A stretch of 64,000 nucleotides of DNA from Squalus acanthias (taxonomy: Eukaryota). How positions within the stretch are numbered: position 1 is the first letter of the stretch; each line of letters starts with the position of its first letter. The stretch covers positions 188,046,001 through 188,110,000 of the forward strand of contig CM059427.1 of NCBI GenBank assembly GCA_030390025.1, in the 5' to 3' direction. Shown one piece after another: positions 2,162 to 63,268 of the stretch. Made by a program: the position numbers and the translations under genes. Below the pieces are notes generated by a model. It ran no database searches, had not been told where the DNA came from, and was given only the letters and a program-made list of their open reading frames with translations.

Positions 2162-3840
2162 TGTAGAATTCGCAATATAGCGCGATTTTATAAATAAGGA
2201 GAAAAACACATAGTTTCGTTCAAACAGCTTTATTTCAGCAGAATGCTGTCAGGTTTTCAAAGTGGACACAAGCAGCCTGTAAAATGGCCGCCACGCCTCG
2301 TGGCGGAACATTCTAGACTTTTCGACAAGCAGACAAGATGGCGTTCCAATAAACATTTGTGCGAGATCGATCAAGACTCAGTACATTTGAGATAATACAC
2401 GAGACATTATGGGTTTGCAGTATACACATAAATACTGAAATCGGTCTCCCAGGTGCGAATAAGGGCTATTGTACCAAGCAATCAAGAACCCATCCAAAGA
2501 CATTAATATGCAAAATCCCAACGACTCTACGATGAGAGAGCCGTTAGCGGGTAGTTACAGAGAACATGTGGGAGCCCCAAAACCCCTCCAGGGAGAACAC
2601 CGACCGATTAAACAATGGGAGAAATATTAACAGGTACTCAGACAGTTACGAGTATCCCCGAAACCCATTTAAAAACGGAGATCACCCTATACAAGAAATT
2701 TGAGCGCCAAACCCTAACAAAAGAAAAGACATTAAGGTTGGGCGGGAAAAGGAAGAGTTTTGCACTATAACTGCAAGCTCCAACCATCCATCTCTCTCTT
2801 ATTCTCTTATCCTGCTGGCGTTTATCCTCGTGGCTGCTCGTGACTCGCCGTCTTGTTCCTGCTTGCCTCGTGTCTCTTTTAAAAGACTGTTGAACTTTAC
2901 GATCCGCCCGGATCGGTCTCGTGGCTTGCCGCGAAGATCTGTGTGGAACTGGGCTGTGAAGCCTTGAAACGGGCGCACCATCCCGAGAAGTCGGTAAACG
3001 GTGTTGGAACCGAAGGCCCGAGACGAGATGAGACGAGATGAGATGAGATGAGATGAGATGAGAAGAGAAGACGACAATACATCTCGTCACGGTCAGTAAG
3101 CCCCGACCGCGCTCGATAAATCGGTAACTGCTACCCAACTGGCAGGAAGACTATTCTTCGAATTTTATCGCATCAGTGCGAGGACACAGGAAGACTCTTC
3201 TTTGAGTAGTATCGGAACTCCGAGGACAACACAGATCTTCATGACAGCAGACGTTCCAGCCTGCTAGCCGGAGCAGAAACGAGTAAACAAGTGGGGTACA
3301 GAGACCCCTGATCAACACGTGGGTGATCAGGTGCTGCGGTGAAAAACATCCGATCAGAGTTTTCGGAATTCTCCGAGTTATCACGAGTGGTGAGCATGAG
3401 TCTCGATCCTACATATCTAGTTTAGAGCAGGTATTAAATAGGGGAGGGTTTAAGTTTTAAGGATAACTGTAATGTGTGCCCCCATTTACGATGTGTCATT
3501 CATTCCTCGTTTCCCTGAAATTAGTTACATAACTGCGTGTAAGATTGTACTGTCATTAATCTGTGCTTATGACATGTATTTCGTAATCTTGAATAATATG
3601 CAATAAAGATTTTCCATTTCGTACCATTCAACCGGGTCTACCTGAGTTTTCTCTCCATTACTGCTCTTGCATCTAAGTCCAGTGTCAGAACCGTAAGGGC
3701 GAGTGGGTCGAACCACTCACAGGTGTCTAGTGCTCCCAGACTGGCTGGAGACCAGAACAGGCAATAAGGCCTAAACTCGCACTAGCATCCAGGCTGCACA
3801 GAGCCACACGAATCTCACAGGTTCAGAGGAAACCCTTACA
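2162..3840 (+). mobile_element. Solo LTR, family B (1679 bp)
   Basis: TGTAG...TTACA termini, 4-bp TSD CTGC (2158-2161, 3841-3844), AATAAA near 3602, internal (GAGAT)n. Homologous to 31967-33597 (-) and 23856-25582. Confidence 0.9.
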
Positions 3841-11295: not shown

Positions 11296-13443
11296 GGTGA
11301 GAGGGGACCATATAATCAGGGGATAGATACTGTTCTCTGTAGCCGTGACTGGGAGTTCTGAAGGTTGCCTGCCTTCGGGGTTAAAGATATCTCCTCACAG
11401 CTGGAGAAGAACTTGGAGTGTGAGTGTGAGAATCCAGTTGTTGTGGTCCACATAGGAACCAACGACATAGGTAGAACAGAAATGAGTTTCTGCTGAGAGA
11501 GTTTAAGGAGCTAGGGTCGAAATTAAAATGCAGAATCTCGAAGGTAATAATCTCTAGATTGTTAACTGAGCCACGTGCAAATTGGCACAGGGACAAACAG
11601 ATTAAAACATTAAATGCGTGGCTGAAAGAGTGGTGTGGGAGGCAGGGGTTTCGCTTCATGGGGCACTGACGCCAGTACTGGGGAAAGAGGGGGCTGTACC
11701 GTTGGGATGGACTCCACTTAAATTGGGCTGGGACCAGCGTTCTGGCGAATCAAATAACTGGAGCGCTAGATAGGACTTTAAACTAATGAAGTGGGGGAGG
11801 GACGATTCAGGAAAGGGTCAATTCAAAAGCAGTAAGAGAACTGTCAAGGCTCTAGAGCAGAGTAGAGATTTGGTTAAAATAAGGACAGTGGATCAGGAAA
11901 GGGCAGAGAGGTTATACGGCATTAGAGACTATTGTGACGTCAGGGAAAGAGAGAAAAAAGTTCAAGCTAAAGGCACTATATCTGAATGTGTGAAGCATTC
12001 GCAACAAAATAGATGAATTAATAGCGCAAATAAAAATAAATGGGTTTGATATAATAGCCATTATGGAGATGTGGTTGCAGAGTGACCAAAGTTGGGAACT
12101 AAATATTCCAGGATACTTGACTTTTAGAAGAGATAGGCAACATGCAAAAAGGGGTGAGGGGTGCGGGGGGGGGGGGGGGGGTGTGGGTGTAGTCTTGATA
12201 ATAAAGGATGGGGTAAAGACAGTCGAGAGAAAGGATCTTAGCTCAGAAAATCAAGATGTAGAATCACTTTGAGTAGAGCTAATAAACAACAAGGGGCAGA
12301 AAACACTGGTGGGAGTAGTTTATAGGCCCCCTAACAGTAATTGTAGTGTTGGGCAGAGTATAAGTCAGGAAATTAGAGTTGCATATAACATGGATAATAC
12401 AGTAATCGTGGGGAACCTTAATCTTCATATTGACTGGACGAACCAAATTTGTGGTAATAGTGTGGAGGATGAGTCCGTGGAATGTATTCAAGATAGTTTT
12501 CTAGATCAGTATGTCGAGGAACGAACTAGGGAACAAACTATTTTAGATCTAGTGTTGTGCAATGAGAAAGGATTAATTATTGGCCCAGAAATTAGACTTC
12601 GATGGTTGCCGCGGGGGTAAGGATCGCGCGCGATCTTACCTACCGCGCCTGCCTTTATGTTTCGGGCCCACACGAACTTCTGGTCCTGGGCCTCTCCCTG
12701 GTGCCGGCGCGCAGTGTGTGCGTGTCCCAGAGGCGCAGTTAGTTCGATGCGACCTCTGGGATCACGTGGGCCATGGAGAGCCAATGGCAGCACACCATCT
12801 TTCATTCATAGATTTGACAGGAGACCTGTCAAAACTATGAATACAAATTGCCCCCAAAAGAACAGCTAAACCTCAAATAATTTTTTTTTAATAACCATCA
12901 CATTAATAAAATAACTATAGTTAAATAAATTAACCACTTTAAACAAAAATTAAAATTTTTGAAAAAATTTAAATTCTTTTTAAAAGTTATAAAAATAAAC
13001 CTACCTTTCTTTAAAGTCTCTAAAAAAGATAAACCTGTTGAAAAAAATGTAAAATAATACTTAATTAACTACTTACCTTGTTAAAAGGGGGTCTTACGGC
13101 TCCTTTCTTCACGTGTAAAATCTTCAATACTTACCTTCGCGTTGAAACCTGAAAAAAAACCTATGTGTGCTGCGTGCGCACAGCCTGTAGTGCGCACGCG
13201 GTTCACTTAGGAACTGCCCCCTTAGCAATACCGGAAGTGCCGGTTTCCCGCGCATGCGCAGTGCATGCAGGAATCCGGCACTTCGGGACCGAATACGCGA
13301 GAGTACACAGTTCGTAATCTCCCGTATTCAGCCGAAGTTTTGGGCCAATAACCTTGTAGTAAAGGTGCATCTGGGGAAGAGTGAACATAATATGATAGAA
13401 TTTTATATTGGGTTTGAGAGTGATTAAGTTAAGTCCGAAACTC
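11296..13443 (+). mobile_element. CR1 LINE 5' part (ORF1 esterase-like end + ORF2 endonuclease), degenerate, interrupted by a MITE
   Basis: 'VVVHIGTNDIG...DGLHLN' (SGNH-like ORF1), 'WELNIPGY', 'GVVYRPPNS', 'ILDLVLCNEKGLI'. Continues after 13347 as 'NLVVKVHLGKSEHNMIEF'. Confidence 0.8.
12581..13347. mobile_element. Non-autonomous TIR element (MITE) in CR1 endonuclease
   Basis: Inverted ends TGGCCCAGAAATT / AAGTTTTGGGCCA. CR1 coding sequence resumes on both sides. Confidence 0.7.
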
Positions 13444-15079
13444 GGTTCTTAAATCTAGTATTGAGAGGGAGGAGGTACTAGCGGTTTTAGCGGGCTTAAA
13501 AGTGGATAAATCCCCAGGCCCAGACGAGATGTATCCCAGGCTGCTGTGTGAGGCAAGGGAGGATATTTCAGGGGCTCTGACACAAATTTTCAGAACCTCA
13601 CTGGCCACAGGGGAGGTGCCAGAGGACTGGAGGACAGCTAACGTAGTACGATTATTCAAGAAGGGTAGGTGGGATAAACCAAGGAATTACAGGCCAGTGA
13701 GCCTAACATCAGTGGTAGGGAAATTATTAGAAACAATTCTGAGGGACAGAATTAGTCTCCACTTGGAGAGGCAAGGATTAATCAAGGATAGTCAGCAAGG
13801 CTTTGTTAGAGGGAGATCATGTCTGACCAATTTGATTGAATTTTTCGAGGGGGTGACTAGGTGTGTGGATGAGGGTAGTGCACTTTATGTGGTCTACATG
13901 GACTTCAGTAAGGCTTTTGATAAAGTCCTGCATGGGAGACTGGTCAAGAATGTAAGTGCCTATGGGATCCAGGGCAACTTGACACATTGGATCCAAAATT
14001 GACTTAGTGGCAGGAGGCAGAGGGTGATGGTCAAAGGTAGTTTTTGTGACTGGAAGCCGGTGTCCAGTGGTGTACCGCAGGGAGCGGTGTTGGGTCCTTT
14101 GCTGTTTGTAGTGTACATTAATGATTTAGATATGAATGTAGGAGGTATGATCAGTAAGTTCGCAGATGACACGAAAATTGGTGGGGTGGTAAATAGCAAG
14201 GAGGGAAGCCTTAGCCTACAGGACAATATAGACGGGTTGGTCAGATGGGCAGAACAGTGGCAAATGGAATTTAACCCTGAAAACTGTAAGGTGATGCATT
14301 TTGGGAGGACTAACAAGGCAAGGGAATACACAATGAATGGTAGGACCCTAGGAAGGACAGAGTATCAGAGGGACCTTGGTGTGCATGTACAAAGATCCCT
14401 GAAGGCAGCGGGACAGGTAGATAAGGTGGTTAAAAAGGCATATGGGATACTTGCCTTCATTAGCCGAGGCATAGAATATAAGAGCAGGGAGGTTATGATG
14501 GAGCTGTACAAAACGCTAGTTAGGCCACAGCTGGAATACTGTGTGCAGTTCTGGTCGCCACACTATAGGAAGGATGTGATTGCATTGGAGAGGGTGCAGA
14601 GGAGATTCACCAGGATGTTACCTGGGCTGCAGTGCTTCAGCTATGAAGAGAGACTGGACAGGCTGGGGTTGTTTTCCTTAGAGCAGAGAAGGCTGAGGGG
14701 GGATCTGATTGTGGTGTACAAAATTATGAGGGGCATAGATAGGGTAGATAGAAAGCAACTTTTCCCCTTAGTAGAGGGGTCAATAACCAGGGGGCATAGA
14801 TTCAAGGTAAGGGGCAGAAGGTTTAGAGGGAATTTGAGGAAAAACTTTTTCACCCAGAGGGTGGTTGGAATCTGGAACTCACTGCCTGAAAGGGTGGTAG
14901 AGGCAGGAACCCTCACAACATTCAAGAAGCATTTAGATGAGCACTTGAAACGCCATAGCATACAAGGCTACGGACCAAGTGCTGGAAAATGGGATTAGAA
15001 TAGACTGGGCTTGATGGCTGGTACGGACACGATGGGCCGAAGGGCTTCTTTATGTGCTGTATAACTCTATGACTCTATG
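13444..15079 (+). mobile_element. 5'-truncated CR1 LINE, RT domain with one in-frame stop (14000-14002)
   Basis: ORFs 13502-14002 and 14024-14998 are in the same frame: 'KSPGPD', 'YRPVSLTS', 'DFSKAFDKV', 'GVPQG', 'FADDTK'. Ends in a (CTATGA)n-like tail. Confidence 0.95.
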
Positions 15080-15084
15080 ATCCT

Positions 15085-15193
15085 TTATAATCTTTTATCT
15101 CTATCTTCATGGATTATATTTCTGTCTTACTGATGGCTGCATCACTTTTTTCTACTGCCATTATGTTATCTCTGATAAGTATAGCTACTCCAC
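15085..15193 (-). mobile_element. Old CR1 endonuclease fragment, left flank of the provirus
   Basis: Minus strand reads 'GVAILIRDNIMAVEK', directly continuing 'LNIAGYNIFRKYSKGKRGG' found at 26125-26250. Confidence 0.8.
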
Positions 15194-16981
15194 TGTAGGC
15201 TTCGCAAAATCCCCCAGAAACTCGAACAGAACCCTAAAGGAGGTGATTTTTGGATTTTTCATACAAATTTGGGATGATGGGACATGAGTGAAGTGATTTG
15301 GGGTAAAAACCTCAGTTTTGGACATTCTTAAAAATCAGGGAAGAAAAACCCTGAGGAAAATGACTTTTGGATATTACTGTTGGGAAAAACACCTTTCACT
15401 GACACAAGACAGGCTGCAGAGGGGTGTGGTGAGGCAGTGGACAGCTTTAGGATATTGGGACCCAGTCAAGCTGGCTGGGAATTGTTTACACTGCAATCCA
15501 ACCATGGAGGAAGAGACAAACCCAAAACCTCACATACACATCCAAATATGAATGATCCAAGAACCCTTTTGAAATTCCCAGGCCCAAACAGGATGCCAGA
15601 AGCCTGAAAACAATGAAACATCTAGTACACCCATTACTTCATTAAAAAAACAATCAGCCCAGTATCTACAGGGACAGATTAACAAGCCCGCCAAAAACCT
15701 AAGACAAAAGGGACAAGATTTGTCGCGTAGATAAAGGCCCTGCCTAAATGGGAGACATTGGAAGCCATCAGGACAATTTAACACCAAGTTAAAGTCATCA
15801 AAATTTAACAAGCCCGCCAAAACCTCAGACAATGGAATGAACAGGCATCAACTGAAACCTAAATCACTCCAACACGAAACCGATTTAGTGAAGGGGTTTT
15901 GGGCGCGAAAAAGACAAAGGGCCTGAACTGTATAATTGAGGGCCTAATCCCCCAAGAAAGTTAGTTGCAGCAGGTTCCAGCAAGACACTACAAGCCACAC
16001 GACACGAGCAAGAGGAGGAAAGAAGCAGCAAGGCTACGAGGCAGACCCGAGGCGAGATCGGAGGCAGGGACAGACAAGGCCAGGCAAGGGCTAGAACTGA
16101 GACCACTGGGAGCGGGTCGGCATCGCTCAACATACCGTCCAGCTCTAGTAGGTACTAGCCAAGGCCACTGGAAGCTGGGAGCGAGTCAGCATCGCTCAAT
16201 CCACGGTCCAGCTCCAGGAGGTACCGCCCCGACAGGCCTCCAACGCAACAAACCAACAACCAGAGCCACCAAGGGCTCCACGAGGTGAACCGACACTCGA
16301 AGGTCCCGCGGAAACCAAGGCCCCGCGCAACCACCAACTACCAGGCAACCATGACCAAGAACCAGACCAACACCAGGGAAAAACCGAAGACACGCAAGTT
16401 TACACTCTGCAAACTATTCCTGACTTACCCCTGGGTAAGATTTTCCCTTAAAAAGCTCTAAACCCTACTTCTAAGGAAGAAAATCGGGTACTCACCTGAT
16501 AGTATCTAAAACGCACCTTACCGCATCAGCGGACAGACCCAAACTGACCTGAAGTGCAGCTAAAGTCTTCCACCACGTCCAGGGTACGGCAGGCCCCAAC
16601 AACCAAAAACCTCAGTGAACCCCGAAATCGCAAAATACATCAACTGTCAAGAACTGTCATTGGTGAGCATTATCCCTGATCCTTTGAAATTGAAACCTAG
16701 CTAGACAGTGGGATTGGGAGGGATAAGGGTTTTTGTATATTGTTGTTCTCCCTCTCCTGTACCGTGTGTTCCCCAACCTGTGTTTAAGCATCTAAGTGTG
16801 TTTTAAGTTTGTTACCTTTTTCTTTTAATAAAGACAAAATTCTTTCATCAGAACCTGTTGTCTACTGCATTTTTGTTCACAACCCCTAAATAAGTCCAAA
16901 GTCGAGAACCAGGGGCGTGGGAGCGATTCGAACCGCTCACTGAGTCAGAGGTGAGGCTGACCCCACACGCCACCCCCTACA
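15194..16981 (+). repeat. 5' LTR, family A (1788 bp)
   Basis: Begins TGTAGG and ends CCTACA (perfect inverted ends). TATAAT near 15932, GGTGAGC donor-like motif at 16662, AATAAA 16827-16832. Confidence 0.92.
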
Positions 16982-16983
16982 AA

Positions 16984-18805
16984 ATGGCGACCGTGGCAGA
17001 ACCTTGGCAAAAGGGTTGTGAAGCAGTAAACGCTGGTTTTGAGGAGAGAACAAAAATGGAAGAGAGGATGTCATCCTATGTGTACAAAAAGGTTAATATA
17101 ACCAACAAATGGGTAATCAGGCTGTTGCATGCTGAACGTCCTATGGACGCTGCAGCTACATGGATTGAGAGCAAGGAATATAATAAGTCTGTGGAAAAGG
17201 CCATATGGTTGGTCTGCTCCCAGAAACAGATGCAGCTTATGGGGAAGCGCATTCAGATTCTCACAGAAGAACGAAGGGAAGAAAGCCAACTGTCCCGTGC
17301 CAGAGCCATAGCAGGGGACAGGTTGTGAGCAGAGCTAAACTCAAAAGATCAGGAACAGTTGCAGATAATAGAGCAACACCGTGCCAGTAAGGGATACCTC
17401 CAGTGTCAGGCCACCAAGGCCAAAAGTAGTGAACTGGCTTGCGGGAAGAGAACACCCACCTTGCCAAGCAATTAAGGGAATTTAAAGAAAAGTTAAAAGA
17501 CGTTCAGACAGCTTACAGAGTAGCCAGTACTAGGGGGTTTGAGGTAGGAGACCACAGCCCCTGTCAGAAGCAGATTGAGAGTCTGAACCTTGCTCTGTCT
17601 AAGGCAAAAGGCATGGTGTGCCTGATAAGCCCGGGTGCGGCCCAGGAAGGCCTGGAAGAGCAAGGGGAAACTGTTCGACCACCACCTGTGGCGCCAAGGA
17701 GAAGCTTGGTTAGGCAGAAGGAGGAGCAGACAATCTGTGAGGCTGACAGGGAGTGCACACCAGCACCTGTGGCGCCGAGTTTTGACTTGGTCTGGCAGCA
17801 GGGAGAGGGGGGCAAACCGATGCAGGAGAGGTCGGAGCCGGGGCCGATGTGCCCAGCCCGGCAGCAAAGGTTTGGCCCGCCCGCAGTGGTGGAGGTCAGG
17901 GACCCCTTTAAAATCAATTTGTGGCTCCCCACGGTACACAACAGCTTAGGGCTATGGTAAGCCACCTGAGTAAACTTACACAAAAGGGGGACCCCTCAGT
18001 ACACTTCATGGAAGTGGAACAGCGGGCAGGCATCAATGACTGTGATGATGCCGAGATGGCAAAAATGCTCCTGTTCTCACTAGATGGCAAACTATACCAG
18101 TCCCTCTCTGCCGAAAGCAAGAGAGCGCAGAATGGGTATGCTGCCTTCAGAGAGGAGGTTTTAGAGGCCATGGGGATAAATGATGGTAGTCCCTTCTCCC
18201 GGGTGGAGAGGACAGTGCAGCTCGCAGGGGAGACCCCACAGGCTTTCGCAGACAGGCTGTGGCTTGTGTACAGGGGTGCTTGTAATGGGGATCTCGACCG
18301 AGCTAACCTGAACAGGGACGAGCTGGCCCACTGGCTCCGTAGCCTAGTTGCAAACAGCTTGCCACGAATCAAAGCCAAGGCTGAGCTTTGGTTTGACCCA
18401 AGAGATCCCCGGGTCACCGAGGAGGCAGTGGTCAGACAACTGACCCTAGCCGACCGGAACGGTAGGGGAGCTGAAGAGCCCCCACCAAAAGGAAAGGTGT
18501 ATGAAATAAAGCCCAGTCAGGATAAGAAGGAGTGGCACCAGGAATGTGGTAAAACTTCCGACACAAAGCGTAACTGCTTCGGGTGCGGGAAGAGTGGGCA
18601 CTGGAGAAAGGACTGTAGAAATCCCTGGAAGGATATGCTAACAAAGAATTCCCCAGCTTTTGCCCCAAAAGTAGAGGCACCGACCTCTTCCCCCACACTG
18701 GACACAATAGTAGCGGCCATCAGAGTCCTGTTTGGTGGCCCAGAGAAGGTAGCTACAGCCACTGGTGCTGTAATCCCACCTGCCCCCCCTAACGCAGACC
18801 TATGA
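16984..18805 (+). pseudogene. gag: gag region (N-terminal coiled-coil segment, capsid-like segment, CCHC zinc knuckle), with stop and frameshifts
   Basis: ORFs 16984-17328, 17439-17960 ('LREENTHLAKQLREFKEKLKDVQTAY' heptads) and 17921-18805 with 'CFGCGKSGHWRKDC' (Cx2Cx4Hx4C). Confidence 0.85.
16985..17002 (+). promoter_or_regulatory. Primer-binding site (TGGCGACC..., probably tRNA-Arg type)
   Basis: TGGCGACCGTGGCAG begins 3 nt after the LTR end. TGG complements tRNA CCA. The tRNA identity is inference. Confidence 0.75.
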
Positions 18806-19902
18806 CTAGAACCAGCGCAGCCCGTCTACCTGTGTTCCCCGGACTACGATGGTAAGAAGGGGGTGGAGACGGTGCAGGGGAGATGTTTGGTGGACACCGG
18901 AGCTGCCAGCACGGTGGTCCATTCAGAAGACCTGACCAATTCACCCAGGTCTAACAAGGTCCCATTTAGCATAATGGGGTTCACAGGGAACGAGCAGGCT
19001 GGGGCAATGTCCAAACCTTTGGACATAGATTTAGGATCCCTCCATACCACGTGGGAGGGTAACCAAAAGGCCGACAAATTGGCCAAGCAGGGGGCCAGGG
19101 AAGGAGAGTTCTGGGATCCCTATAAAGCAGGTCCGGTAGCCGCAATCCGGGACAAGGGAGGCACACAGGGGGTAGCTTTGCCCCCGGACTTGAAGCAGGT
19201 CCAAGCCCAGGATCCCGTCCTTAAGGCCGGCCTGGTAAAAAGAGAGAATGGGGAGTCCATAGAAGGTCCGTTCAGGGCAGCGGACGAGATTTTAAAACAG
19301 ATTCACTGGCAAGCAGCCAGTAACCTGGGGAGCCAGCACCAGAAAAATCGCCTGCTGTTAGAACCCCAGAGAACCCACGAGTGGGAGATTGACCAGTGTA
19401 AACTGTTTAAACTTGAGAAAAGGGAACAGCCAGCAAAGGTGGACTACCCCAAAGTTAAAAATCCCCAGCCAGCAGCTGTGGCAGACGCACAAGCTGCAGC
19501 GGGAGGGACAGTGTGCTGTTTCACAGGAGAGAACCCTCCCCCGATTACATGGGACTCAAGCACACCCCCAGTGGCCAGAGCCCTAAGAAGGTCTCCCCAC
19601 ACACCACAGCCAAAGCTACTGTGGCCACAGGTGTATCTGTTTAGAGGGTCCCACCCAAAGAGGGCTGCAACCCGAAAAGGAGCGCCCAAGAGCAGGGAGC
19701 GTTCTAAAGTTGGGGATCCCCAGCCTACAGCCTCCAACAGTGAGGGACTCACAGGAGAGGTAGTACTGGGAGAAGAGAGAGAGAAGGGTCTCCCGCCTGC
19801 AGCCTCAGGCTGGGAGGAGCCCACAGATATGAACGAGGGCGCTGCAGCCACACCAAAGGGGGTAGTGTGCTGCAGCACAGGACGCAGCTGGGATGTTAAG
19901 AT
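18806..19902 (+). pseudogene. pol: pro-pol remnant: aspartic protease fused in frame to RNase H C-terminal helix and integrase-flanking fragments; RT absent
   Basis: 'CLVDTGAASTVV' (protease), then at about 19054 directly 'EGNQKADKLAKQGA' (retroviral RNase H end) and 'LKQVQAQDPVLK'. No YxDD, HHCC or DDE motifs seen. Confidence 0.8.
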
Positions 19903-20162
19903 AAAATTGAGAGGTCGCACAACACCAGGTTATAGTCCAACAGTTTTATTTGAAATCACAAGCTTTCGGAGCTATCGATTGCTCCTTCCTCAGGTGAAGT
20001 AAATTAGATACAGAATTCTGTATCTAATTTACTTCACCTGAGGAAGGAGCAATCGATAGCTCCGAAAGCTTGTGATTTCAAATAAAACTGTTGGACTATA
20101 ACCTGGTGTTGTGCGACCTCTCAATTTTGTCCACCCCAGTCCAACACCGGCATCTCCGCATC
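19903..20162 (+). mobile_element. Penelope-like 3' end inserted as a perfect palindrome
   Basis: 113-bp inverted arms centred on GAATTC (20013-20018) plus a 34-nt tail. Flanking duplication ATGTTAAGATAA (19893-19904, 20163-20174). Sequence is nearly identical to the end of the element at 60087. Confidence 0.9.
20035..20080 (+). ncRNA. Minimal hammerhead ribozyme motif of Penelope-like pLTR
   Basis: CTGAGGA-AGGAGC(aatcgata)GCTCC-GAAA-GCTT: conserved CUGANGA and GAAA boxes around helix II. Further copies at about 30029, 34494, 37260, 62674 (+) and 19990, 33930, 38600, 60205 (-). Confidence 0.8.
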
Positions 20163-20482
20163 ATGTTAAGATAACCCCAGCGTTTTGGAGGAAGGCCTTC
20201 TGAGTCCGGCGGTACAGGCCGCACTACACCCAGGTGTACAAGCCATCCAGAGGCCACAAAAGGCAGAGGCTAAACAGGATTTAACCTGGCCGTCCGGAGA
20301 CGGGTGGCAAATGTACAGAGTTTTACGTTTTAAGTCATTGCAGTTTTGGTAGTTATGGGTTATCATTAGTTTAGTTATTTGTAGAGTTTTAAGTTTAAGG
20401 GCTCGATTAATTATCCAGCCAGAGAACCTTTCTGGGACATGGATATATGTTTTGTGTGTGCCCCTACAGAAAGGAATTCCGA

Positions 20483-22764
20483 ATGACAAGGGTTCTGCTC
20501 CTGCTCGCCCTGGTAGGGGTGAGCATCGGTGACCAAGGTGACGTAGAGGACTCCCACATCTATGGGTGCTCGGGAGAGAGAGCACCAGTCGTCACCGCAG
20601 GGGGTGGCGAGCGGGGAGTGGAGGAGCTCGCCATCTACTTCCACGAGGGAAGGTGGCCAGGGTGGCTGAGTTCCAACTCTACTAAATACTCCAACCAGCC
20701 CGGGTTCATGTACGGGGAGGCCTCCCTCCCATGCCCCAGAATACAGGTTGTTGCCACAAGGGTCAGTGTCACCGAGGGGAAGCGTGTGTGCCTTAGCTGT
20801 AAGGGACGAATTCCCCTGAATAGGTGGTGGTGGCTCAGAAAGCTGAGCAGGGACGCAGGGGACCATACAGCCCACTGGGAAAGATTAGGGAACGACACCT
20901 ACCGGACAATCACAGGGACCCAAGGGAGAGTGAGTGTTTGTTGGGATAAGTGGTGGGAGTCGGAACAGGGAGTCTATGTTTGTATGTGGGGATCAGAGGA
21001 AGCCTGCCCCACAGGGGTATCCATCATCTTCTCCAGCCAATGGCAAGATGCCGGGGAGGGGATAGGGTGGGATTCTAGCCTGCATGTGTGCGTGGTCCCA
21101 CACATTCCGATCCCAGTTAATGCCACTGAACTCGTGGCACACACCCGAAAGCCCCTACCCACGACCCAGGTACCAAAAACCCTGGAAGAAAAGTGTCCTA
21201 CCACAACCAAGGGACCAGGGAATGGGTTAGTCCTAGTACCAACTGAAAAGGTACTATACCAGGGGGTACACTATGCAGTAGCTTCAGTAATATTAAACCT
21301 TACCGAGGTATACTTACCTGAGTGGTGTCCTAAGGAGACGGAGCAGTTGTACCAGGCCTTGCTAAAGGAAATGTTTAGAAAATTTTACGAGTTTGATTTT
21401 GCCAATATAGACAAAGTAGAGCTATACAGAATACACCCTGAGAACCCTATGGGCACTGGGAGACAAAGAAGGGGAGCCTGGAATGATGTTTTCACTGCCT
21501 ATAGTACAGGATCCTCTGTGATAAATAGCCTGGATGGCATGGAATTACAGACACAGATAAATGGTTTAAAAACCCAGTTAAGAAAGATCCTGAAGGATGG
21601 GAACACAGTGGTAGGCTCAGAGCTACATGAGGACCAAGCTATGATGGTTCATTTAAAGGAAATTATTGCAGAATTGGAAAGGCATGCCAAAACAGTAAAT
21701 GCACTCATACAGGAGGATAGGAATGCATCGGATCAGGCTGCACAGAATGAGGTGTGTGTGCTGTACGGGGCATGGTTGCTGGACGAGGGCCATAGCAACC
21801 TGGAGGATTTAAAGCAAGGTTTAGTCCCCTCCTGGATCAGCAACAAGCACCTCGCAGCCCTCCACCCGTTTAGTAATTCGCTGAGCCAATGTCAATTTTG
21901 TCTAGCCTCTGAAGCCTACCCTGTCCCAATAGATTGTGGGCGTTCCAATCACACTATCATGGGGATAGTAGTGAGGATGCCGGTCATGAGTGGGACAGCC
22001 CGACCCGTACCGGTATACAGGGTGGAGAACATTGGGATCATTCAAGGGGGTGCACACATCCGTTTCACAGCGGTCCCACCTTATGTCATAAAGTGGGAAC
22101 ACGCTATGACAGGTACTGACCTCTCCGGGTGTTGGAGCCGGGGTTCACACATAATACTATGTCCCTAGCACTCAGGACTTCTAAACCACAGTGCGGGTTT
22201 AAAGCTGCTGGCGCACGACCTATAAACTGTACCATGGAGGTAATGGCACACGGCCATGTTTCCCCACAGGTAGCATATATAGGGGGTGGGACATATTGTG
22301 TCACCACAGGTGTGTCCCACTACCAGCATGGACACTTCTGGTGTCCGGTAAGTGACAGCAGTTTCTGCTTTAAACCCGAGGCAGAAGTTCAAGTGGCCCA
22401 GGAACGGATTGTCCCCATTCCTGAACCCTCCACTGTTCACCTCACTGTAACAGAAAACATCACCAACCTGCAAATGTATGTGACTTATTTTGGAGATAAA
22501 ATTCCCCCTCTACCCGAACATCTTACCATCCTACTTAAAGCTGTAGAGATTTCACAAAAACATTTCTACACCCTGGAACAGAAAACAGTTGAAATAGGGG
22601 CAGAGATTTTGGATATAGTAGTTCCACCCTGGTGGGATATTTTCGAGAATATAGAGGTGCCTTCCTGGATCAGGATGGCTTCCCATCTTCTGGTGGTCTG
22701 CCAGCTCGGGATAGTTCTCTACCTGCTGTGTATAAAGTGCAGTGGAAGGGATGGACAGCTCTGA
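20483..22764 (+). pseudogene. env: env: signal peptide + Ig-like domain + stalk + class I (F-like) fusion glycoprotein with TM; one stop/frameshift at about 22166
   Basis: 'MTRVLLLLALVGVSIG' leader behind a splice acceptor (AG 20468-20469); furin site RQRR 21461-21472; heptad 'MELQTQINGLKTQLRKIL'; Cys-rich region; TM 'HLLVVCQLGIVLYLLCI' in ORF 22129-22764. Confidence 0.85.
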
Positions 22765-23107
22765 TCCAGACACGAAGGGACTTAGAAAGTGCATCAAAAT
22801 AAAGGCTATGGCCAGGGATGGAACGAACCTTGATTTTGTTTTTCTAATAACATTTTTTGTACGTGTGTTGTGTCATTTTTGTGATGTGTATGATGTGTTT
22901 TCCCAAGCAGTGCAGGGGTGTCGGACCCTCTCCGTGCTTGGATGTGAAAAAGTTTGATTTTCTTACCTGTATGTACCTGAAACACCACATTAAAAAGGGG
23001 AATGTATGTTTGGGTTTTTAGTTTAGGTAATTATAGGGGAAGGTTGGTTTTCGGGGATCAGAAATTTTGCTCACCTGGTAATGATACTGATTCAGGTTCA
23101 GTATCAC

Positions 23108-23115
23108 AGGGGGAG
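23108..23115 (+). promoter_or_regulatory. Polypurine tract
   Basis: AGGGGGAG immediately before the TG of the 3' LTR at 23116. Confidence 0.8.
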
Positions 23116-26100
23116 TGTAAGCTTCGCAAAATCCCCCAGAAACTCGTATAGAACCCTAAAAGGGGTGATTTTTGGATTTGTCATACGAATTTGGGATGAT
23201 GGGACCTAAATGAAGTGATTTGAGGCAAAAACCTCAGTTTTGGACATTTTTAAGGATCAGGGAAGAAAACCCCTGAGGAAAATGACTTTTGGATATGACT
23301 ATTGGGAAAAACACCTTTCACAGACACAAGACAGGCTGTGGAAGGGTGTGGCGAGGCAGTGGACAGCTTTTGGTTATTGGGGCCCAGTCAAGCTGTCTGG
23401 AAAATGTTTGCACTGCAATCCAAGCAGGAGTAAGAGCCTCACCCAAAACCTCACAAACACATCCAAAATTGAATAATTCAAGACGCCTTTTGAAATTCCC
23501 AGGCCCAAACAGGATGCTAGAAGCCTGAAAACAATAAAACATCCAGTACACCCATCACCCCACCAATCACCTGTAATCAACCGAAGAGATCGACAGGACG
23601 CAAGCCATTTGACACTTAGTAAAGTCGTTACTGTTAACAAGGTCTTACAATGACCAGGATTTGATTTGGCTTTGACGAGGCCACTTCAATTTAGTATAAT
23701 TGAAGGCCCATCAAGCAGTTACAACAGTTTCAGTAAGAAGGCCCATCAAACAGTTACAGTTCAAGTTCAACAGAAGGCAGTTCTGCAGGCTGGAGTTACA
23801 GAGTTCAGGACAAGCAGGCAGAAGGCAGTTTCCACAGTTCTGCAAGAAGGCAGTTTGTAGATTTTCGCAATTATCACGATTTTAATAATAAGGAGAGAAG
23901 CAAGTTTAATTGAACATTTTATTGAACGAAAGGCTGCTACTTTAAAAAAAAAGGTATAGCAGCCTTGTAAAATGGCCGCCGAGCATCGTGACAGGCTTTC
24001 CAGAACATGGTGAGCACACAGCCACTGCAGTAAAAAAAACCGCGAAGACCAGTCGTAATGGCTCAGACAAGAAGGCGCTGAAAATACATTTATAATGAGA
24101 TCATGCACAGTACAGATTGGGAAGGCAGGATGCAACACATTTGTGTTTTGGACAGAACAATAAACTAAGTGCTTGACTCATTTTAAATGCACGGTGAGGA
24201 GTCGTTGCACCGGACGGTCGGGGCCCATCCAGACACATCATTATACAAATTCCACCCAGCTCAACAATGAGAAAGACATTGACGGGTGATTGGGCCAGTT
24301 TTGAGTGATCCCGAAACCAGTTGAGGAGACAATTATACAAATTCCACCCAGCTCAACAATGAGTAAGACATTAACGGGTAGTTGGGCCAGTTTCGGGTGA
24401 TCCCGAAACCAGTTGAAGAGACAATTACCCCATACCGAGAACTTTGGGCGCCAAAATTAAACAAAAGACAGCATCTTGATTTGAGCGGGAGATAAGGCCC
24501 GTTCCAACAGTATAACTATAGAAGAAGAATGTGCATCAGGGGTTCGTTGTGCGTTCGTTCATTGGTCTCGTTCGTTTGGTGCGGTTCGTTCGTTGGTTCC
24601 GTTCGTTCGGTTGGTTCGGTCGGTTGGTTGGTTGGTCGTTGTTGACCGTTTTGGGCAGAGGCTCACATTCGGCCAGGAGCGGAACCTCAGGACGAGCCAC
24701 CTCGACACGGCAGGCAGCAGGGTACACCATCCCGATCATCGGTAATCGGTGTCCGGATCCATCAGGGCAACGCAGCGGTGTGTTCCCGAACGACCAGCCG
24801 CTGTCAGTCAAGAAGGCAGGAACTTCGGCCAAACGAGGCCCGAGCGGCGAGAAGAATTCCACGTAGGAGCCGGCACGGTCAGTCAAACCCCGACCGCGCC
24901 CAAAGATAAACGACGAAGTAGGTTCAAACCCACTCTTTGAATCCTAACGAATATTTCATGACATCAGGAAAGACAGGCTTTTTCTTCTGGTTATTTGAGC
25001 GAATAGCCTGGGCCATCCGCGACGAACGTTCATCAGGGCTAACCCGAGTGGGTCCATCGTGGCAGCGAGAGTAAACAAGTCGTGCTCAGAAGCTCCCACC
25101 GCCACGTGGCAGCCAGGGGCTGCAACGAAAAGCTGCGAGCCTCATTTTAAATTCCGAAATAACCCGAGTGGTGAGCATGTTTCCCGATCCTACAAGTCCA
25201 GACTTAGTTTAGGTATTATAGGGGAGAGTGGTTTTTAAGAGTAATTTGTAATGTGTTATCCCCTTTACGATGTGCCGTGTGTTCCCCATTTGTATAGAAC
25301 AAGATTTATAGACGTGTGTATACTTGTAATTTCTTGGATCTGCGCATATGACATGTATTTCATTATTTTGGACACCGTACAATAAAGGCATTTCATTTCG
25401 TATTATTCAACCAGGTCTATTTGAGTCCTTCTCTGCATTACTGCTCCTTTGCATCTAAGTCCAGGTGTCAGAACCGTAAGGGCGAGTGGGTCGAACCACT
25501 CACGGGTGATTATTTCAAGAGGTCTGGCCGGAGACCAGAGCAAGCAATAGCAAAGAATCACAGGCCACGAAAACCCCTTACAAGTTCCACAGCTCGGAAG
25601 AAGACAGTTTAAACAGAGGCAGAGTTACAGCAAGAAGTTCAACAAAGAAGGCCAACAACTTCACAAGCAGACCGACACGCAAGAAGAAACCAGAGCGACT
25701 GCCTCAGTGACTATCGGACACCTCGCGGCAACAAGGGCCTCACGAAACCTTTTACTCAAATGACTCTAAACCCTAACTCTAAACCGTCAAGGATTCGTTT
25801 GGTGAGCATTATCCCTGGTTCTCCAGAGTCCAACCTAGCTAGTGAAGTGGGATTGGGAGGGGTGAAGTATTCTTCTAATGTTATTTCCCTCGCTTATACC
25901 AATGTGTTCCCCAACCTGTGTTTAAGCATTAAGAGTGTTTTAAGTTTGTTACCCTTTTCTTTTAATAAAAGTCAAAATTCTTTCATCAAAACCTGTTGTC
26001 TACTGCATCTTTGTTCACAACCGCTAAGTAAGTCCAAGGTCTAGAACCAGGGTCGTGGGAGCGATTTGAACCGCTCACTGAGTCAGAGGTGAGGCTGACC

Positions 26101-26124
26101 CCCCCCCACACACCACCCCCTACT
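23116..26124 (+). repeat. 3' LTR, family A variant, interrupted by a family B solo LTR
   Basis: TGTAAGCTTCGCAAAATCCCCC start matches the 5' LTR to about 23555. The end (25800-26124) matches 16660-16981. Terminal CA reads CT. Confidence 0.88.
23856..25582 (+). mobile_element. Solo LTR, family B, nested in the proviral 3' LTR
   Basis: TGTAG...TTACA, TSD AGTT (23852-23855, 25583-25586), internal (GTTC/GGTT)n repeat at 24540-24650. 5' and 3' parts are homologous to 2162-3840. Confidence 0.9.
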
Positions 26125-26250
26125 CCACCTCCCCTTTTTCCCTTGCTATATTTTCTAAATATGTTATACCCTGCAATGTTTAATTCCTCGTCCTGATTTT
26201 TGTGTAGCCATTTCTCAAAATCCCTACTATATCGGGTTTCTTGCAACATA
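26125..26250 (-). mobile_element. Old CR1 endonuclease fragment, right flank of the provirus
   Basis: 'KWLHKNQDEELNIAGYNIFRKYSKGKRGG' on the minus strand. Confidence 0.8.
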
Positions 26251-30003: not shown

Positions 30004-30151
30004 GGTGAAGTCTTAGATTAGACTGCACCTGACGAAGGAGCAGCGCTCCGAAAGCTTGTGATTTCAAATAAAGCTGTTGGACTATAACCTGGTGTTGTGC
30101 GACATCTCACATTTGTCCACCCGAGTCCAACACCGGCATCTCCACATCATG
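30004..30151 (+). mobile_element. Short Penelope-like 3' end insertion
   Basis: HHR motif plus tail; 11-bp TSD CCTTCAGATTA (29993-30003, 30152-30162). Confidence 0.85.
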
Positions 30152-31966: not shown

Positions 31967-33597
31967 TGTAAGGGGTGACCTGTGGCTCTGTGCTTAGCCT
32001 GGGTGCTAGTGCGGGGTTAGGCCTTGTTGCCTGCTCTGGTCTCCAGCCAGCCTGGTAACACTAGACACCTGTGAGTGGTTCGACCCACTCGCCCTTACGG
32101 TTCTGACACTGGACTTAGGTGCGAGAGCAATAATGCAGAGAAGACTCAGGTAGACCCGGTTGAATAGTGCGAAATGGAAAATCTTTATTGCATATTATTC
32201 AAGATTACGAGATACATGTCATAAGCACAGATTAATGACAGTACAATCTTACACACAGTTATGAAACTAATTTTAGGGAAACGAGGAGCGCACGACACAT
32301 CGTAAAAGGGGACACACATTATAATTATCCTTAAAACTTAAACCCTCCCCTATCAATACCTGTCCTAATCTAGATTTGTAGGATCGAGTCTCATGCTCAC
32401 CACTCGTGATAACTCGGAGAATTCCGAAACTCTGCTCGGATGTTTTTACCGCAGCACCTGACTATCCACGTGTTGATCAGGGGTCTCTGTACCCCACTTG
32501 TTTACTCGCTTCTGCTCCGGCTAGCAGGCTGGACCGTCTGCTGTCATGAAGATCTGTGTTGCCCTCGGAGTTCTGATACTGCTCAAAAAAGAGTCTTCCT
32601 GTGCCCTACACCGGTTCGATAGAACTCGAAGAAGGGTCTTCCTGGGCCAGTTGTGGAGTAGCCGATAGAATTCAAAGAAGTGTTTATTCGACTTACAGGC
32701 GCGGTCGGGGCTTACTGACCGTGGCGATGCATATTGTCGTCTTCTTCTCTTCTCATCTCATCTCATCTCATCTCATCTCCTCTCGGGCCTTCGGTTCCAA
32801 CACCGTTTACCGACTCCTCGGGATGGTGCGCCTGCCTCCAGGCCTCGCAGCCCAGTTCTCCACAGATCTTCGCGGCAAGCCACGAGGTTGATCCTAGCGG
32901 ATCAGAGTCCAGAGCCGTCAGGCAAGAGAATAAAAGTTCAGCAGCCTTCCAGCGAGTCAAAGCAGCAAGAGAGAGATGGACGGTTGTACCTTACAGTTAT
33001 AGTGCTGTAATTCCTCTTTTCCCGCCCAATCTTAATGTCTATCTTTTGTCAGGGTTTTGGCACTCAAAATTCTTGTATGGGGTGATCTCAGTCTTTAATG
33101 GGTTTCGGTGACACTTGTAACTGAGTACTCGTTAATATTTCTCCCATTGTGGAACCGGCTAGTAGTCTCCCTGGAGGGGTTTTGGGGCTTCCAAATGCTT
33201 GCTGTGAGTACCCGCAAACGGCTCTCTCATCGTAGAGTCGTGGGGATTTTGCATATTAATGTCTTTGGATGGGTCCTTGATCGCTCAGTACAATAGCCCT
33301 TGTTTGCACCTGGGAGACCGATTTCAGTATTCATGTTTAAAGTGTAAACCCATCGCGTTTTGTCATTATCTCATCATGTTGGATCTTTTCGATCTTGCAC
33401 AAATGTTTATTGGAACGCCATCTTGTCTGCCTACTGAAAGTCTAGAACTTTCTGCCACGAGGCGTGGCGGCCATTTTACAGGCTGTTTGTGTCCATTTTG
33501 AAACCTGACAGCATTCTGCTGAAATAAAGCTGTTTATACGAAACTATATGTCTCCTTCTTATTTTTATAAAATCGCGATAATTTTGTGAATTCTACA
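31967..33597 (-). mobile_element. Solo LTR, family B, inserted in a SINE-like repeat
   Basis: Reverse complement of the 2162-3840 family over its whole length, with TG...CA ends. Only a 3-bp flanking match (TGG). Confidence 0.9.
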
Positions 33598-33816
33598 TGG
33601 AGAGGAGTATTTTAAAACAAAAAATTTGACACCGAGCTACATAAGGATAAATTAGGGCAGGTGACCAAAAGCTTGGTCAAAGAGGTAGGTTTTAAGGAGT
33701 GTCTTAAAGGAGGAAAGAGAGGTAGCGAGGCGGACAGGTTTAGGCAGGGAATTCCAGAGCTTAGGGCCTAGGCAACAGAAGGCACGGTCACCAAAGGTTG
33801 AGTGATTATAATCAGG

Positions 33817-34566
33817 ATGCGGAGATGCCGGTGTTGGACTGGGGTGGACAAAAATGAGAAGTTGCACAACACCAGGTTATAGTCCAACAGATTTATTTAA
33901 AATTACAAGCTTTCGGAGCTGTCGCCCCTTCGTCAGGTAAAGGTACAATGAATGAATCTACAATATTACACAGTATATAAACACAGAAACTGCAGAGATA
34001 CAATCTTTCAGGGAGGCCTTACATCAAAGACACACCAGAGCACAGCCAAGACAATGAGATGAGTCACAGGGGGTCCAACGTGTCAAATCCTGCTGTCTGC
34101 AGTTGAGCTTTTAACCCTTTTTTTTGGGGTTTGTTTTTTTGTGCTTTTTTTTAAAAACTGGAAAGACAGACAACGATGTCGAGTCATGTTCTGTAGCGTG
34201 ACATGAACTCAATAGGGAGATCGGGTTCATGTCACGCTACAGAATGTGACTCGACATCGTTGTCTGTCTTTCCAGTTAAAAAAAAAACACCAAAAAAAAA
34301 ACAAAAAAAAAAGGGTTAAAAGCTCAACTGCAGACAGCAGGATTTGACACGTTGGACCCCCTGTGACTCATCGCATTGTCTTGGCTGTGCTCTGGTGTGA
34401 CTTTGATGTAAGGCCTCCCTGAAAGATTGTATCTCTGCAGTTTCTGTGTTTATATACTGTGTAATATTGTAGATTCACTCATTGTACCTTTACCTGACGA
34501 AGGGGCGACAGCTCCGAAAGCTTGTAATTTTTAATAAATCTGTTGGACTATAACCTGGTGTTGTGC
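33817..34566 (-). mobile_element. Penelope-like fold-back insertion (about 345-bp inverted arms)
   Basis: Arms about 33864-34210 and 34222-34566, short loop, TSD GATTATAATCAGG (33804-33816, 34567-34579), HHR motif in each arm. Confidence 0.88.
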
Positions 34567-35189
34567 GATTATAATCAGGGATGCTCAAGAGGGCAGAATT
34601 AGAGGAGCGCAAATATCTCGGGGGGTTGTGGGGCTGAAGGAGATTACAGAGATAGGGAGGGGTGAGGCCATGGAGGGATTTGAAAACAAGGATGAGTTGT
34701 CACACAACTCACAAGCAAAATATATTGGTGCACAGGTGTGATGGAACAAAGTTGACTCTGATTTGGCTCAGTGTTAGTGATGAACAAACCAAGACTACCC
34801 TTTTGGGAACTACTTCTTTTAACCCTAATCTTGTAATCTTGACCAGTCATTTATATTATTTTATATCAGGTTTTTAAACATTTTAAAAATGTATTCATTT
34901 ACAGGATGTGGGCATCGCTGGCAAGACCAGCATTTATTGCCCATCCCTAAATGCCCTTGTGAAAGTGGTGTCCTGTAATAGCCTTTCACTGAGATGCAAA
35001 ACAGCCTTGTAAAGGTTTTTAAAAAATGCACAACAAAATTGTTTTAAATCAATTATTCTCCAGATATTGGCATCGCTGGTAATGCCTGCATTTTTTGCCC
35101 ATCATCAATTGCCTTTGAGAAGGTGTTGGTGGGCCTTCTTCTTGAACCTCTGCAGTCCTTGTGGTGAAGGCACTCCCACAATTCTTTTA

Positions 35190-35697
35190 GGTTGCATGTT
35201 GGCCGTTATTGCAAGGAGGTTGGAGTACAAGAGTAAGGAAGTCTTGCTACAATTGTACAGGGCTTTGGTGAGACCACACCTGGAGTACTGTGCACAGTTT
35301 TGTCTCCTTATCTAAGGAAGGATGTACTTGTCTTAGAGGCCGTGCAACGAAGGTTCACTGTATTGATTCCTGGGATGAGAGGGTTGTCCTATGAGGAGAG
35401 ATTGAGTAGATTGGTCCTATACTCTTTGGATTTCAGAAGAATGAGAGGTGATCTCATTGAAACATATAAGATTCTGAGGGGGTTTGACAGGGTAGATGCT
35501 GAGAGGTTGTTTCCCCTGGCTGGAGAGTCTAGAACTAGGGGGCATAGTCTCAGGATAAAGGGTCGACTTTATAAGACAGATGAGGAGCAATTTCTTCACT
35601 CAGAGTGTTGTGCATCTTTGGAATTCTCTGCCCCGAATGGCTGTGGATGCTGAGTTATTGATTATATGCAAGGTTGAGATAGATAGATTTTTGGACT
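35190..35697 (+). mobile_element. CR1 3' fragment
   Basis: 'LYRALVRPHLEYCAQF', 'RGDLIETYKI', 'TRGHSLRI'. Confidence 0.85.
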
Positions 35698-36770
35698 TGT
35701 AGGGGGTGGTGTTTTGTGTCAGCTTCACCTGACTTCTGAGCGGTTCGAATCGCTCCCACTCCCTTGGTTCTAGACCTTGGACTTATTTGGGGGTTGTGAT
35801 ACAAAGGTGCAGCAGACAACTGAGTTTGATGAAAGAACTTCAATCTTTATTCAAGAAAGTAAAACACAAACACTCTTAACACTCTAAAAGTGGGGAACAC
35901 TTCGGTACAAGCGAGAGAAATAACATTAAAAGAATACTTCACCCCTCCCAATCCCACTTCTCTAGCTAGGTTGGGCTCTGGAGAACCAGGGATAATGCTC
36001 ACCAAACGAATCCTTGACAGTTGAGAGTTAGGGTTTAGAGTCTTTTGAGTAAAAGGTTTCATAAGGCCCTTGTTGCCACGAGGTGTCCGATGGTCACTGA
36101 GGCGGTCGCTCTGGTTTCTTCTTGCGTGTCGACCTACTTCTGGAGCTGTTGGCCTTCTTTGTTGGACTTCTTTCTGTTGAACTCTGCCTCTGTTTAAACT
36201 GTCTTCTTCCGAGCTGTGGAACTGCCTTCTTTCAGAACTGTAACGGTCTTCTTGCAGAACTGTGGAACTGCCTTCTCTTTGCTCCTCCTGAACTCGGTAA
36301 CTCCAGCACTGACTTCTGCTGAAAACAGGCTTTCAATTGAACTCGAAACTGCAGAACTGCCTTCTGTTGAACTTGAACAGTTTTACTGGAGAACTGCTTG
36401 ATGGGCCTTCAATTATACTAAATTGAAGTGGCCTTATCTACCTCAAATCAAATCCTGGTCATTCTAAGACCTCGTTAACAGTAACGACTTTTCTAACGTG
36501 TTATCTGGTTTTTGGGATGGCTTGCGTCCTGTCAATCTCCTTGGCTGATCACTGGTGATTGGTTTTGTGGTTTGTGTTTCTAGGCTGGACTCGGTCTTTT
36601 CTATAGAAATGGTCCTGAGTGATTTGTATTATGCATGTTTTCTGATGGGCCCTGTAATCGGTTTGATGGGACCTGTTGTTTTGGGTGGGACTGTCTGCTC
36701 CTAGGGTCTATTGTCAAAATGTTAATGCTTGCTGGGGCTTTGAGTGAGGTCATCCCGGCTCCCCAGACAT
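35698..36770 (-). mobile_element. Partial family A LTR (3'-LTR-type middle)
   Basis: Reverse complement matches 23560-23855 joined to 25587-26124, without the nested family B LTR. The U5 end CCCCCTACA lies at 35698. Confidence 0.85.
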
Positions 36771-62761: not shown

Positions 62762-63268
62762 TTCTATGAGATAGCCAGTTACTTATCCAATCGGCCAAAT
62801 TTCCCTCTATCCCACAACTCCTTACTTTCTTCATGAGCCGACCATGGGGAACCTTATCAAACGCCTTACTAAAATCCATGTATACGACATCAACTGCTCT
62901 ACCTTCATCTACACACTTAGTTACCTCCTCAAAGAATTCAATCAAATTTGTTAGGCAAGACTTACCCTTCACGAATCCGTGTTGACTATCCCTGATTAAG
63001 TTGCCCCTTTCCAAATGGTCATAAATCCTATCCCTCAGGACCTTTTCCATTATCTTACCAACCACCGAAGTAAGACTAACCGGCCTATAATTACCAGGGT
63101 CATTCCTATTTCCTTTCTTGAAGAGAGGAACAACATTCGCCACTCTCCAGTCCTCTGGCACCATTCCCGTGGACAGTGAGGACCCAAAGATCAAAGCCAG
63201 ACCCATTGTCAGGCAGATATAGATGGAATACATCATTCGAGGTACAATTATGGGGAAGGAGAGAGATG

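Follow-up and report, generated by a model that had tools for sequence, protein, structure and literature searches.

A pol-deleted endogenous retrovirus of Squalus acanthias with a predicted F-type envelope and relatives whose reverse transcriptase falls inside Retroviridae

Is the provirus at positions 15194..26124 of a 64,000-nucleotide stretch of the Squalus acanthias genome (GCA_030390025.1, contig CM059427.1, 188,046,001 to 188,110,000; hereafter the window) a lokiretrovirus (Loki)? An initial annotation had read it as an intact lokiretrovirus-like provirus with an F-type envelope (Env) in a probable cartilaginous-fish genome. We conclude, with a probability of about 0.88, that the locus is a dead copy of a young, high-copy endogenous retrovirus (ERV) in a pol-deleted and likely helper-dependent form; that the reverse transcriptase (RT) of this ERV, as encoded by pol-bearing relatives, lies inside Retroviridae in a deep clade close to snakehead retrovirus (SnRV); and that its Env has a predicted F fold preceded by a likely Ig-like domain. 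The family is a variant within a known deep retroviral group, SnRV-like ERVs being known in cartilaginous fish (PMC4422223).

The provirus is real. All on the forward strand, it shows a TG..CA long terminal repeat (LTR), a primer-binding site (PBS) for tRNA-Arg(TCG), gag, a pol remnant, env, a polypurine tract (PPT) and a second LTR, bounded by a 4-bp target-site duplication (TSD). The order and the TSD described in the initial annotation therefore stand, but its intactness does not: gag, pol and env are all broken and the LTRs are mismatched, so that the locus is a dead copy. The gag gene (16984..18805; frames and domain scan), which has ~605 codons in open-frame copies, is interrupted by one stop and two frame breaks; it encodes an N-terminal heptad region, confirming the coiled coil noted earlier ahead of a capsid that is assigned by position, and a CCHC knuckle (18572-18619). 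A blastp comparison of Gag with the Gag of SnRV, WDSV and Loki gave no similarity except the knuckle. Between gag and pol lies an in-frame TGA followed by CTAG (18803..18809), likely a readthrough signal, and TGA-CT(A/G)-G is found at this junction in 21/21 copies (the locus and 20 fetched copies); UGA-CUA is one readthrough context known from alphaviruses (PMC13517186). Alignment to pol-bearing copies shows that amino acids 1-89 and 779-857, plus fragments of the C-terminus, are left of a 1282-aa pol frame, RT, the tether, most of RNase H and the integrase core having been deleted. The protease announced earlier is thus a remnant (19054 being its last position from 18806, with DTG at 18893-18901), limited to pol amino acids 1-89 and missing its C-terminal part. 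It is fused in frame to an RNase H tail with linker (19055..19281), the same junction occurring in 7/20 other copies, and GNQKADKLAK is indeed a retroviral RNase H tail (pol aa 779 onward). Integrase C-terminal remnants follow at 19295..19583.

Lokiretroviruses are defined on RT, and the question can be answered from the pol-bearing relatives, which encode protease, RT, tether, RNase H and integrase, that is, a dual RNase H; across the family the layout is the retroviral LTR-PBS-gag-pro-pol-env-PPT-LTR. We placed their RT in trees of 52 rows, 68 rows and, under the C20 mixture model, 33 rows, with three natural Loki loci, found via a motif common to published Loki RTs, as Loki references, and with viral references (SnRV, 10,688 nt; WDSV, 12,708 nt) labelled by their length and by eye against Dataset S3 of Wang and Han. 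The family falls inside Retroviridae with support of 100/98, 100/99 and 98/96, respectively, and groups with Pol proteins of frogs and coelacanth in one clade (96/90, 86/96, 89/85). Loki lies outside the family and Retroviridae in 3/3 trees, which reproduces its position as sister to the retroviruses, and the approximately unbiased (AU) test rejects a clade of the family with Loki (p 0.0013, 0.0041). Among named RTs, SnRV matches best (42.5%, 212 bits; Loki 35%, 160-171 bits). The Loki RT motif, present in 24/24 published consensus RTs, is absent from the family RT, and its DNA pattern has 0 matches in the genome, in line with the 0/6 chondrichthyan genomes in which Wang and Han recorded Loki (their Fig. 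S1, PMC7947760). A true lokiretrovirus here would be the first in cartilaginous fish, and it would have in its favour an F-type Env whose profile scores Loki Env highest, a coiled-coil Gag, a dual RNase H, an integrase and tether nearer Loki, and a TGA-CTA gag/pol junction also found in the Loki loci L073/L074. Against these stand the RT results, a Loki pol of 1745 aa with a long N-terminus versus about 1240-1280 aa here, and the CCHC knuckle of this Gag, none being found in the Loki Gag scanned. We regard this explanation, and with it the initial classification, as very improbable; the RT placement is the kind of outcome that the initial annotation had itself named as refuting its reading.

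The trees bear on other assignments as well. A Ty3/Gypsy element of errantivirus type that carries an F-type env could account for the top matches of an atlas search with Env (Baculo_F/Gypsy env clusters) and for the 4-bp TSD, F-type envs being widespread in invertebrate Gypsy elements; we give it next to no credence, as Ty3/Gypsy stands apart at 100/100 in 3/3 RT trees and relatives have a second RNase H after the tether. On these two grounds membership in Metaviridae was rejected. Foamy viruses are likewise apart at 100/100 in 3/3 trees; with RT outside the foamy clade and a Gag knuckle present, membership in Spumaretrovirinae was rejected among the lineages sampled, fish foamy-like ERVs lying outside the tree sample. 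ERV4, defined by a 5-bp TSD, no Gag zinc finger and no GPF/Y-type motif (Chong 2014), does not fit a family with a 4-bp TSD, a CCHC knuckle and matches to an SH3-like domain at the integrase C-terminus. A protein that had been taken as Loki-Lch (P0008) was rejected as such. The genome also holds another deep retroviral lineage (L062:1-4601), which the RT trees place as sister to gamma/epsilon/class II.

What, then, is the envelope? At the locus env is split across two frames (20411-22168 and 22120-22764). The 5' part (20483..22168, ending at a stop) comprises a signal peptide, a likely Ig-like domain (20735-20983), a T/P-rich linker, an F2-like region, the furin site RQRR (21461-21472), a fusion-peptide region, a long heptad and the start of the Cys/beta domains; the 3' part, in the other frame (22120..22764; frames and model), continues with Cys/beta domains, a second heptad and the transmembrane helix. 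All the Env features listed in the initial annotation, namely the furin site, the weakly hydrophobic region behind it (best 19-aa hydropathy 0.35), the long heptad and the beta/Cys region before the transmembrane helix, were confirmed, but the extent it gave (21220-22764) was too short, env starting ~240 codons upstream with the signal peptide and likely Ig-like domain. It had also described gamma-type motifs as absent; CX6CC was sought in Env and not found, so that the gamma-type combination of CX6CC and an immunosuppressive domain does not apply, whereas one CxxC (CLSC/CLTC) does occur, in the Ig-like part. The N-terminal 240 aa are likely Ig-like, with Pfam Ig_3 at E 0.003-0.03 (below the cut-off) and an atlas V-set score of 0.92.

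Structure prediction supports an F-type Env, with the paramyxo/pneumovirus (measles/RSV-like) F fold, as had been supposed. We built the model from 27 sequences (pLDDT 68), a single-sequence model (pLDDT 36.8) being unusable and kept out of searches. Foldseek against the PDB returned 228 matches at E<=0.001, the best at 2.2e-9 (hPIV3 F), and those listed are all F proteins or foamy Env. The model aligns to Langya F with Z 8.8 (rmsd 6.2 over 249 aligned) and to foamy Env (PDB 8RM0) with Z 7.9 (rmsd 4.8 over 209); in a viral model library it matches WEHV-1 Env (E 1.7e-10), WDSV Env (1.6e-6), baculovirus F and feline foamy Env. The atlas search gave Baculo_F and Fusion_gly at 0.94-0.95 with low recognition. 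At the sequence level, searching PDB and Pfam with Env brought up no match to F, and a scan of 42 Env homologues yielded a weak Baculo_F match in 1/42 (E 0.0011).

The initial annotation had allowed for a relative of Loki. This stands in a loose sense, since Env, tether and integrase do score nearer Loki than SnRV. By profile, Loki Env reaches 56-58 bits, WDSV 22, foamy 8-16 and SnRV 8, and hhalign gives a probability of 98.5% for Loki, 88.8% for SnRV (E 2.5e-6, 337 columns) and 2.2% for a gamma-type (MLV-type) control. However, the Envs of SnRV, of walleye epsilonretroviruses and of foamy viruses also match, by sequence profile or fold, and an F-type Env is hence not diagnostic of Loki. That foamy Env is F-like was known (PMC11468914); we found no report, in a search covering mostly non-subscription literature, of an F-type Env in SnRV-like or epsilon retroviruses or shark ERVs. 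The predicted fold of this Env, in a family that groups with ordinary retroviruses, suggests that F-type envelopes are old and widespread among fish retroviruses. SnRV Env (L139:1076-4480) and WDSV Env (L127:5962-9648) are themselves apparently homologous to F-type envelopes, and the N-terminal stretch of SnRV Env looks Ig-like by eye.

Homologues of Env (45 matches) come from sharks, a skate and frogs (names for 8/10 looked up), and the closest, in Pristiophorus japonicus and Rhinoraja longicauda (55-76% identity), indirectly support the cartilaginous-fish host. In the frog Mantella aurantiaca a cluster of 16 near-identical related Envs (P0079), most of 677 aa, represents a young element with an F-type Env in an amphibian. 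Four annotated host proteins fused to Env pieces (P0004, P0005, P0046 and P0073; Niban 1-like and cadherin-related 5-like by name, zinc-finger and F-box by Pfam) are probably gene-model artefacts.

We tentatively suggest, at slightly less than even odds, that the F-type Env is ancestral to Retroviridae and Loki, and that the clade of shark, frog and coelacanth elements, as a basal lineage of orthoretroviruses, kept it, with an Ig-like receptor module, alongside a tether, an integrase and a UGA-CUA readthrough that are Loki-like. Gamma-type Env would then have replaced it repeatedly, once within the clade (CmiERV lineage I), while SnRV and the walleye epsilonretroviruses would still be F-type. 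The Loki-like traits of the family (Env, tether, UGA-CUA junction) are probably ancestral. The other candidate is a recombinant, in which an SnRV-like RT backbone acquired Env, and perhaps integrase, from a lokiretrovirus instead of keeping ancestral versions. It is compatible with the RT placement preferred here and differs in the origin of Env only; in its favour, the domain scores conflict, one integrase tree joins the clade with Loki, Env is nearer Loki than SnRV, and env exchange within the clade is seen from CmiERV lineage I. We nevertheless consider it unlikely: Env identity to Loki Env is only about 18-23%, SnRV, WDSV/WEHV and foamy Envs are F-type too, frogs and several sharks carry related Envs, the larger integrase tree does not resolve the Loki grouping, and by motif pattern the genome holds no Loki.

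Several observations weigh against our reading, of an ERV inside Retroviridae near SnRV with an F-type Env. The family, SnRV and foamy viruses form an open polytomy in 3/3 RT trees, which leave a sister relation to SnRV unsettled, and the RT trees were drawn without ERV-L, ERV4, fish foamy-like ERVs or CmiERV, the comparison with CmiERV having been made by eye, outside the trees. Outside RT the affinities shift: the tether is nearer Loki than SnRV (39%, 94-99 bits vs 50), as are the integrase (42-44%, 206-209 bits vs 129) and, on the profile and hhalign scores above, Env. One integrase tree, from which 8/53 rows had been dropped (7 short matches, 1 without match), joins the clade with Loki at 94/93, and a larger one does not resolve that grouping; CGIN1 is in neither. 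For the envelope, TM-scores of the model are low (0.2-0.34) and a Z near 8 is middling, and the Ig-like call combines a sub-cut-off Pfam match with an atlas score. The choice of the fetched copies, described below, counts here too.

Comparison with known systems places these traits in context. CmiERV lineage I of the elephant shark, likewise a chondrichthyan host, clusters with SnRV in Han 2015 (PMC4422223), and 39/49 residues of a 49-aa RT core are, by eye, identical between the family and CmiERV scaffold 2 (SnRV 34/49, Loki-Lch 27/49); the integrase core, the in-frame gag/pol TGA and the Gag knuckle are similar by the same inspection. It differs in its gamma-type Env with immunosuppressive motif and CX6CC (by eye, Dataset 1), as opposed to F-type here, in its PBS, and in an LTR of ~0.8 kb versus the tRNA-Arg PBS, 1.3-1.8 kb LTRs and pol-less derivatives of the family. 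Because a lineage matching in RT, by eye, has a gamma-type Env and the family an F-type one, envelopes have been swapped within the clade holding both. SnRV, the best named RT match, also has an in-frame gag/pol stop, a PBS matching a tRNA-Arg and an Env homologous over 337 columns, but its junction is TAG rather than TGA, its Env is a 1134-aa frame with a long tail, it has accessory ORFs, and its integrase and tether are more distant. The family thus shows traits of the SnRV/CmiERV-I type: the in-frame gag/pol stop, the zinc knuckle and, as in SnRV, a tRNA-Arg primer. Loki (Wang and Han 2021, PMC7947760) resembles it in an F-type Env (closest by profile), tether and RNase H, a similar integrase, a coiled-coil Gag and, at two natural loci (L073/L074), the TGA-CTA junction, and differs in an RT outside Retroviridae with its own motif, the longer pol, and an Env (568-aa frame in L074) without the Ig-like extension at its N-terminus. 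The tether and second RNase H are present in the pol-bearing relatives, but they are common to all retroviruses. Foamy (PDB 8RM0, PMC11468914) and walleye epsilonretrovirus Envs share the predicted F-like core, yet the family RT is neither foamy nor epsilon, and unlike them, the family Env has a cleavable signal peptide, not a leader peptide with a transmembrane segment, and an N-terminal Ig-like domain without a large inserted receptor-binding domain.

The family to which the locus belongs is young and high-copy, with a pol-bearing form and two pol-less forms. An env query gave 8760 candidates in the genome, and the 124 scored were 92-100% identical. Among 20 fetched copies, chosen for long open env frames so that the proportions of forms are biased, 8 carry RT, 7 share the deletion junction of the locus, and 5 have gag and env without pol; gag, pol and env were all open together in 0/20 of these stretches, several of which were cut on the 5' side. 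The dN/dS of env is 0.22-0.51 among and between forms (13 sequences). The pol remnants share 67-81% identity with pol-bearing copies, yet env dS between these forms is ~0.065, from which we infer recombination, with an old defective backbone carrying a recently exchanged env, and the mismatched LTRs of the provirus fit the same process. Related loci were sought in viral contigs and no relative was found; in four presumed-RNA contig sets, 30/30 bins were covered, mostly by relatives at 90-99% similarity, and none of the joints shown was of the GT..AG type, which is uninformative on expression. Gag-only derivatives of Loki exist in zebrafish.

The 5' LTR (15194..16981; 1788 nt, TGT..ACA, AATAAA at 16827), delimited by genome matches and alignment, gave 5427 first-look candidates, of which 40 scored yielded 43 matches, most of them full length, at 91-95% identity; 38/43 cover nearly the whole LTR. 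The 3' LTR (23116..26124), preceded by the short PPT AGGGGGAG (23108..23115), is of a different subtype, ~1.28 kb without its insert, and alignable sequence between the two LTRs is confined to the ends, 444 nt (89%) and 348 nt (85%). They are therefore no matched pair; the LTR pairs of two other family proviruses are 96.3% and 97.5% identical. The initial annotation had missed a nested solo LTR of a related high-copy family (23856..25582; 1727 nt, TGTAGA..CTTACA, own 4-bp TSD AGTT) inside the 3' LTR, and also a 260-nt palindromic insert before env. The nested LTR contains a 92-nt tandem pair and GTTC repeats and is 81% similar to the LTR of the pol-bearing copy L026. Further LTR pieces of the same group (70-86% identity) lie in the window at 3372-3766, 32027-32507, 35697-36563 and 38927-40107.

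The TSD copies are CCAC at 15190..15193 and CCAC at 26125..26128, and the last LTR base is T instead of A. A plain 4-bp TSD is favoured over a chance 4-bp match, or over a 5-bp TSD next to an LTR that had lost its final base, because the TSD of the family is 4 bp, exact in 16/20 LTR loci and 2/2 proviruses checked. An identical stretch of 9 nt, CTACTCCAC, exceeds the TSD at 15185-15193, before the 5' LTR, and at 26120-26128, across the 3' end; it may be chance or microhomology at integration. The PBS (16985..17002), whose first bases are overlapped by the gag ATG (16984-16986), can pair with the 3' end of the genome's own tRNA-Arg(TCG) genes at 16/18 positions here and at 18/18 in 3/21 copies; the 3'-end pattern has 431 genome matches and 0 in the control, the tRNA identity being given by ARAGORN. 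On contig C26 (L151-L153) tRNA-Arg(TCG) and tRNA-Ser(GCT) genes form long tandem arrays with a 1.62-kb period, giving the primer tRNA a copy number in the hundreds.

A near-copy of the locus, flanks included, lies ~478 kb away at 99% identity. It lacks the palindrome (19904..20162; 116-nt arms, 99% complementary, no strand assigned), which is a later, high-copy insertion flanked by short duplications of ~10-12 nt, with 1202 genome candidates and further pieces in the window at 30022-30151, 33813-33942, 34488-34568, 60086-60236 and 62651-62767; we take its head-to-head layout to be reminiscent of Penelope-like insertions. RT frames directly upstream of the provirus (13433-14998), presumably a CR1-like LINE by its motifs, were duplicated together with it.

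From these sequences a cycle may be proposed. The pol-bearing form would make Gag-Pol through UGA readthrough and would be primed on tRNA-Arg; its Env, after furin cleavage, is predicted to act as a class I membrane fusogen of F type, the Ig-like domain being a likely receptor-binding module, by analogy with the IgV-like receptor-binding domain of gamma Env. The pol-less forms appear to keep gag and env under purifying selection, would be copied by helper Pol, and may exchange env and LTRs with the helper through recombination.

As a locus this is an unremarkable dead copy; the interest lies in the history of Env. Wang and Han (PMC7947760) left four scenarios for the origin of retroviral Env open, and the 2024 foamy Env structures (PMC11468914) set F-like and orthoretroviral Env apart as two classes. 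An RT on the orthoretroviral side joined to an F-type Env, beside a close RT relative with a gamma-type Env, means that this split runs through single clades, and trees can put the scenarios of Env origin to the test. Elements of this kind would escape screens that, like the one in Han 2015 (PMC4422223), demand a known type of retroviral Env behind pol. Finally, the young pol-less forms that retain env offer a natural case of helper-dependent spread.

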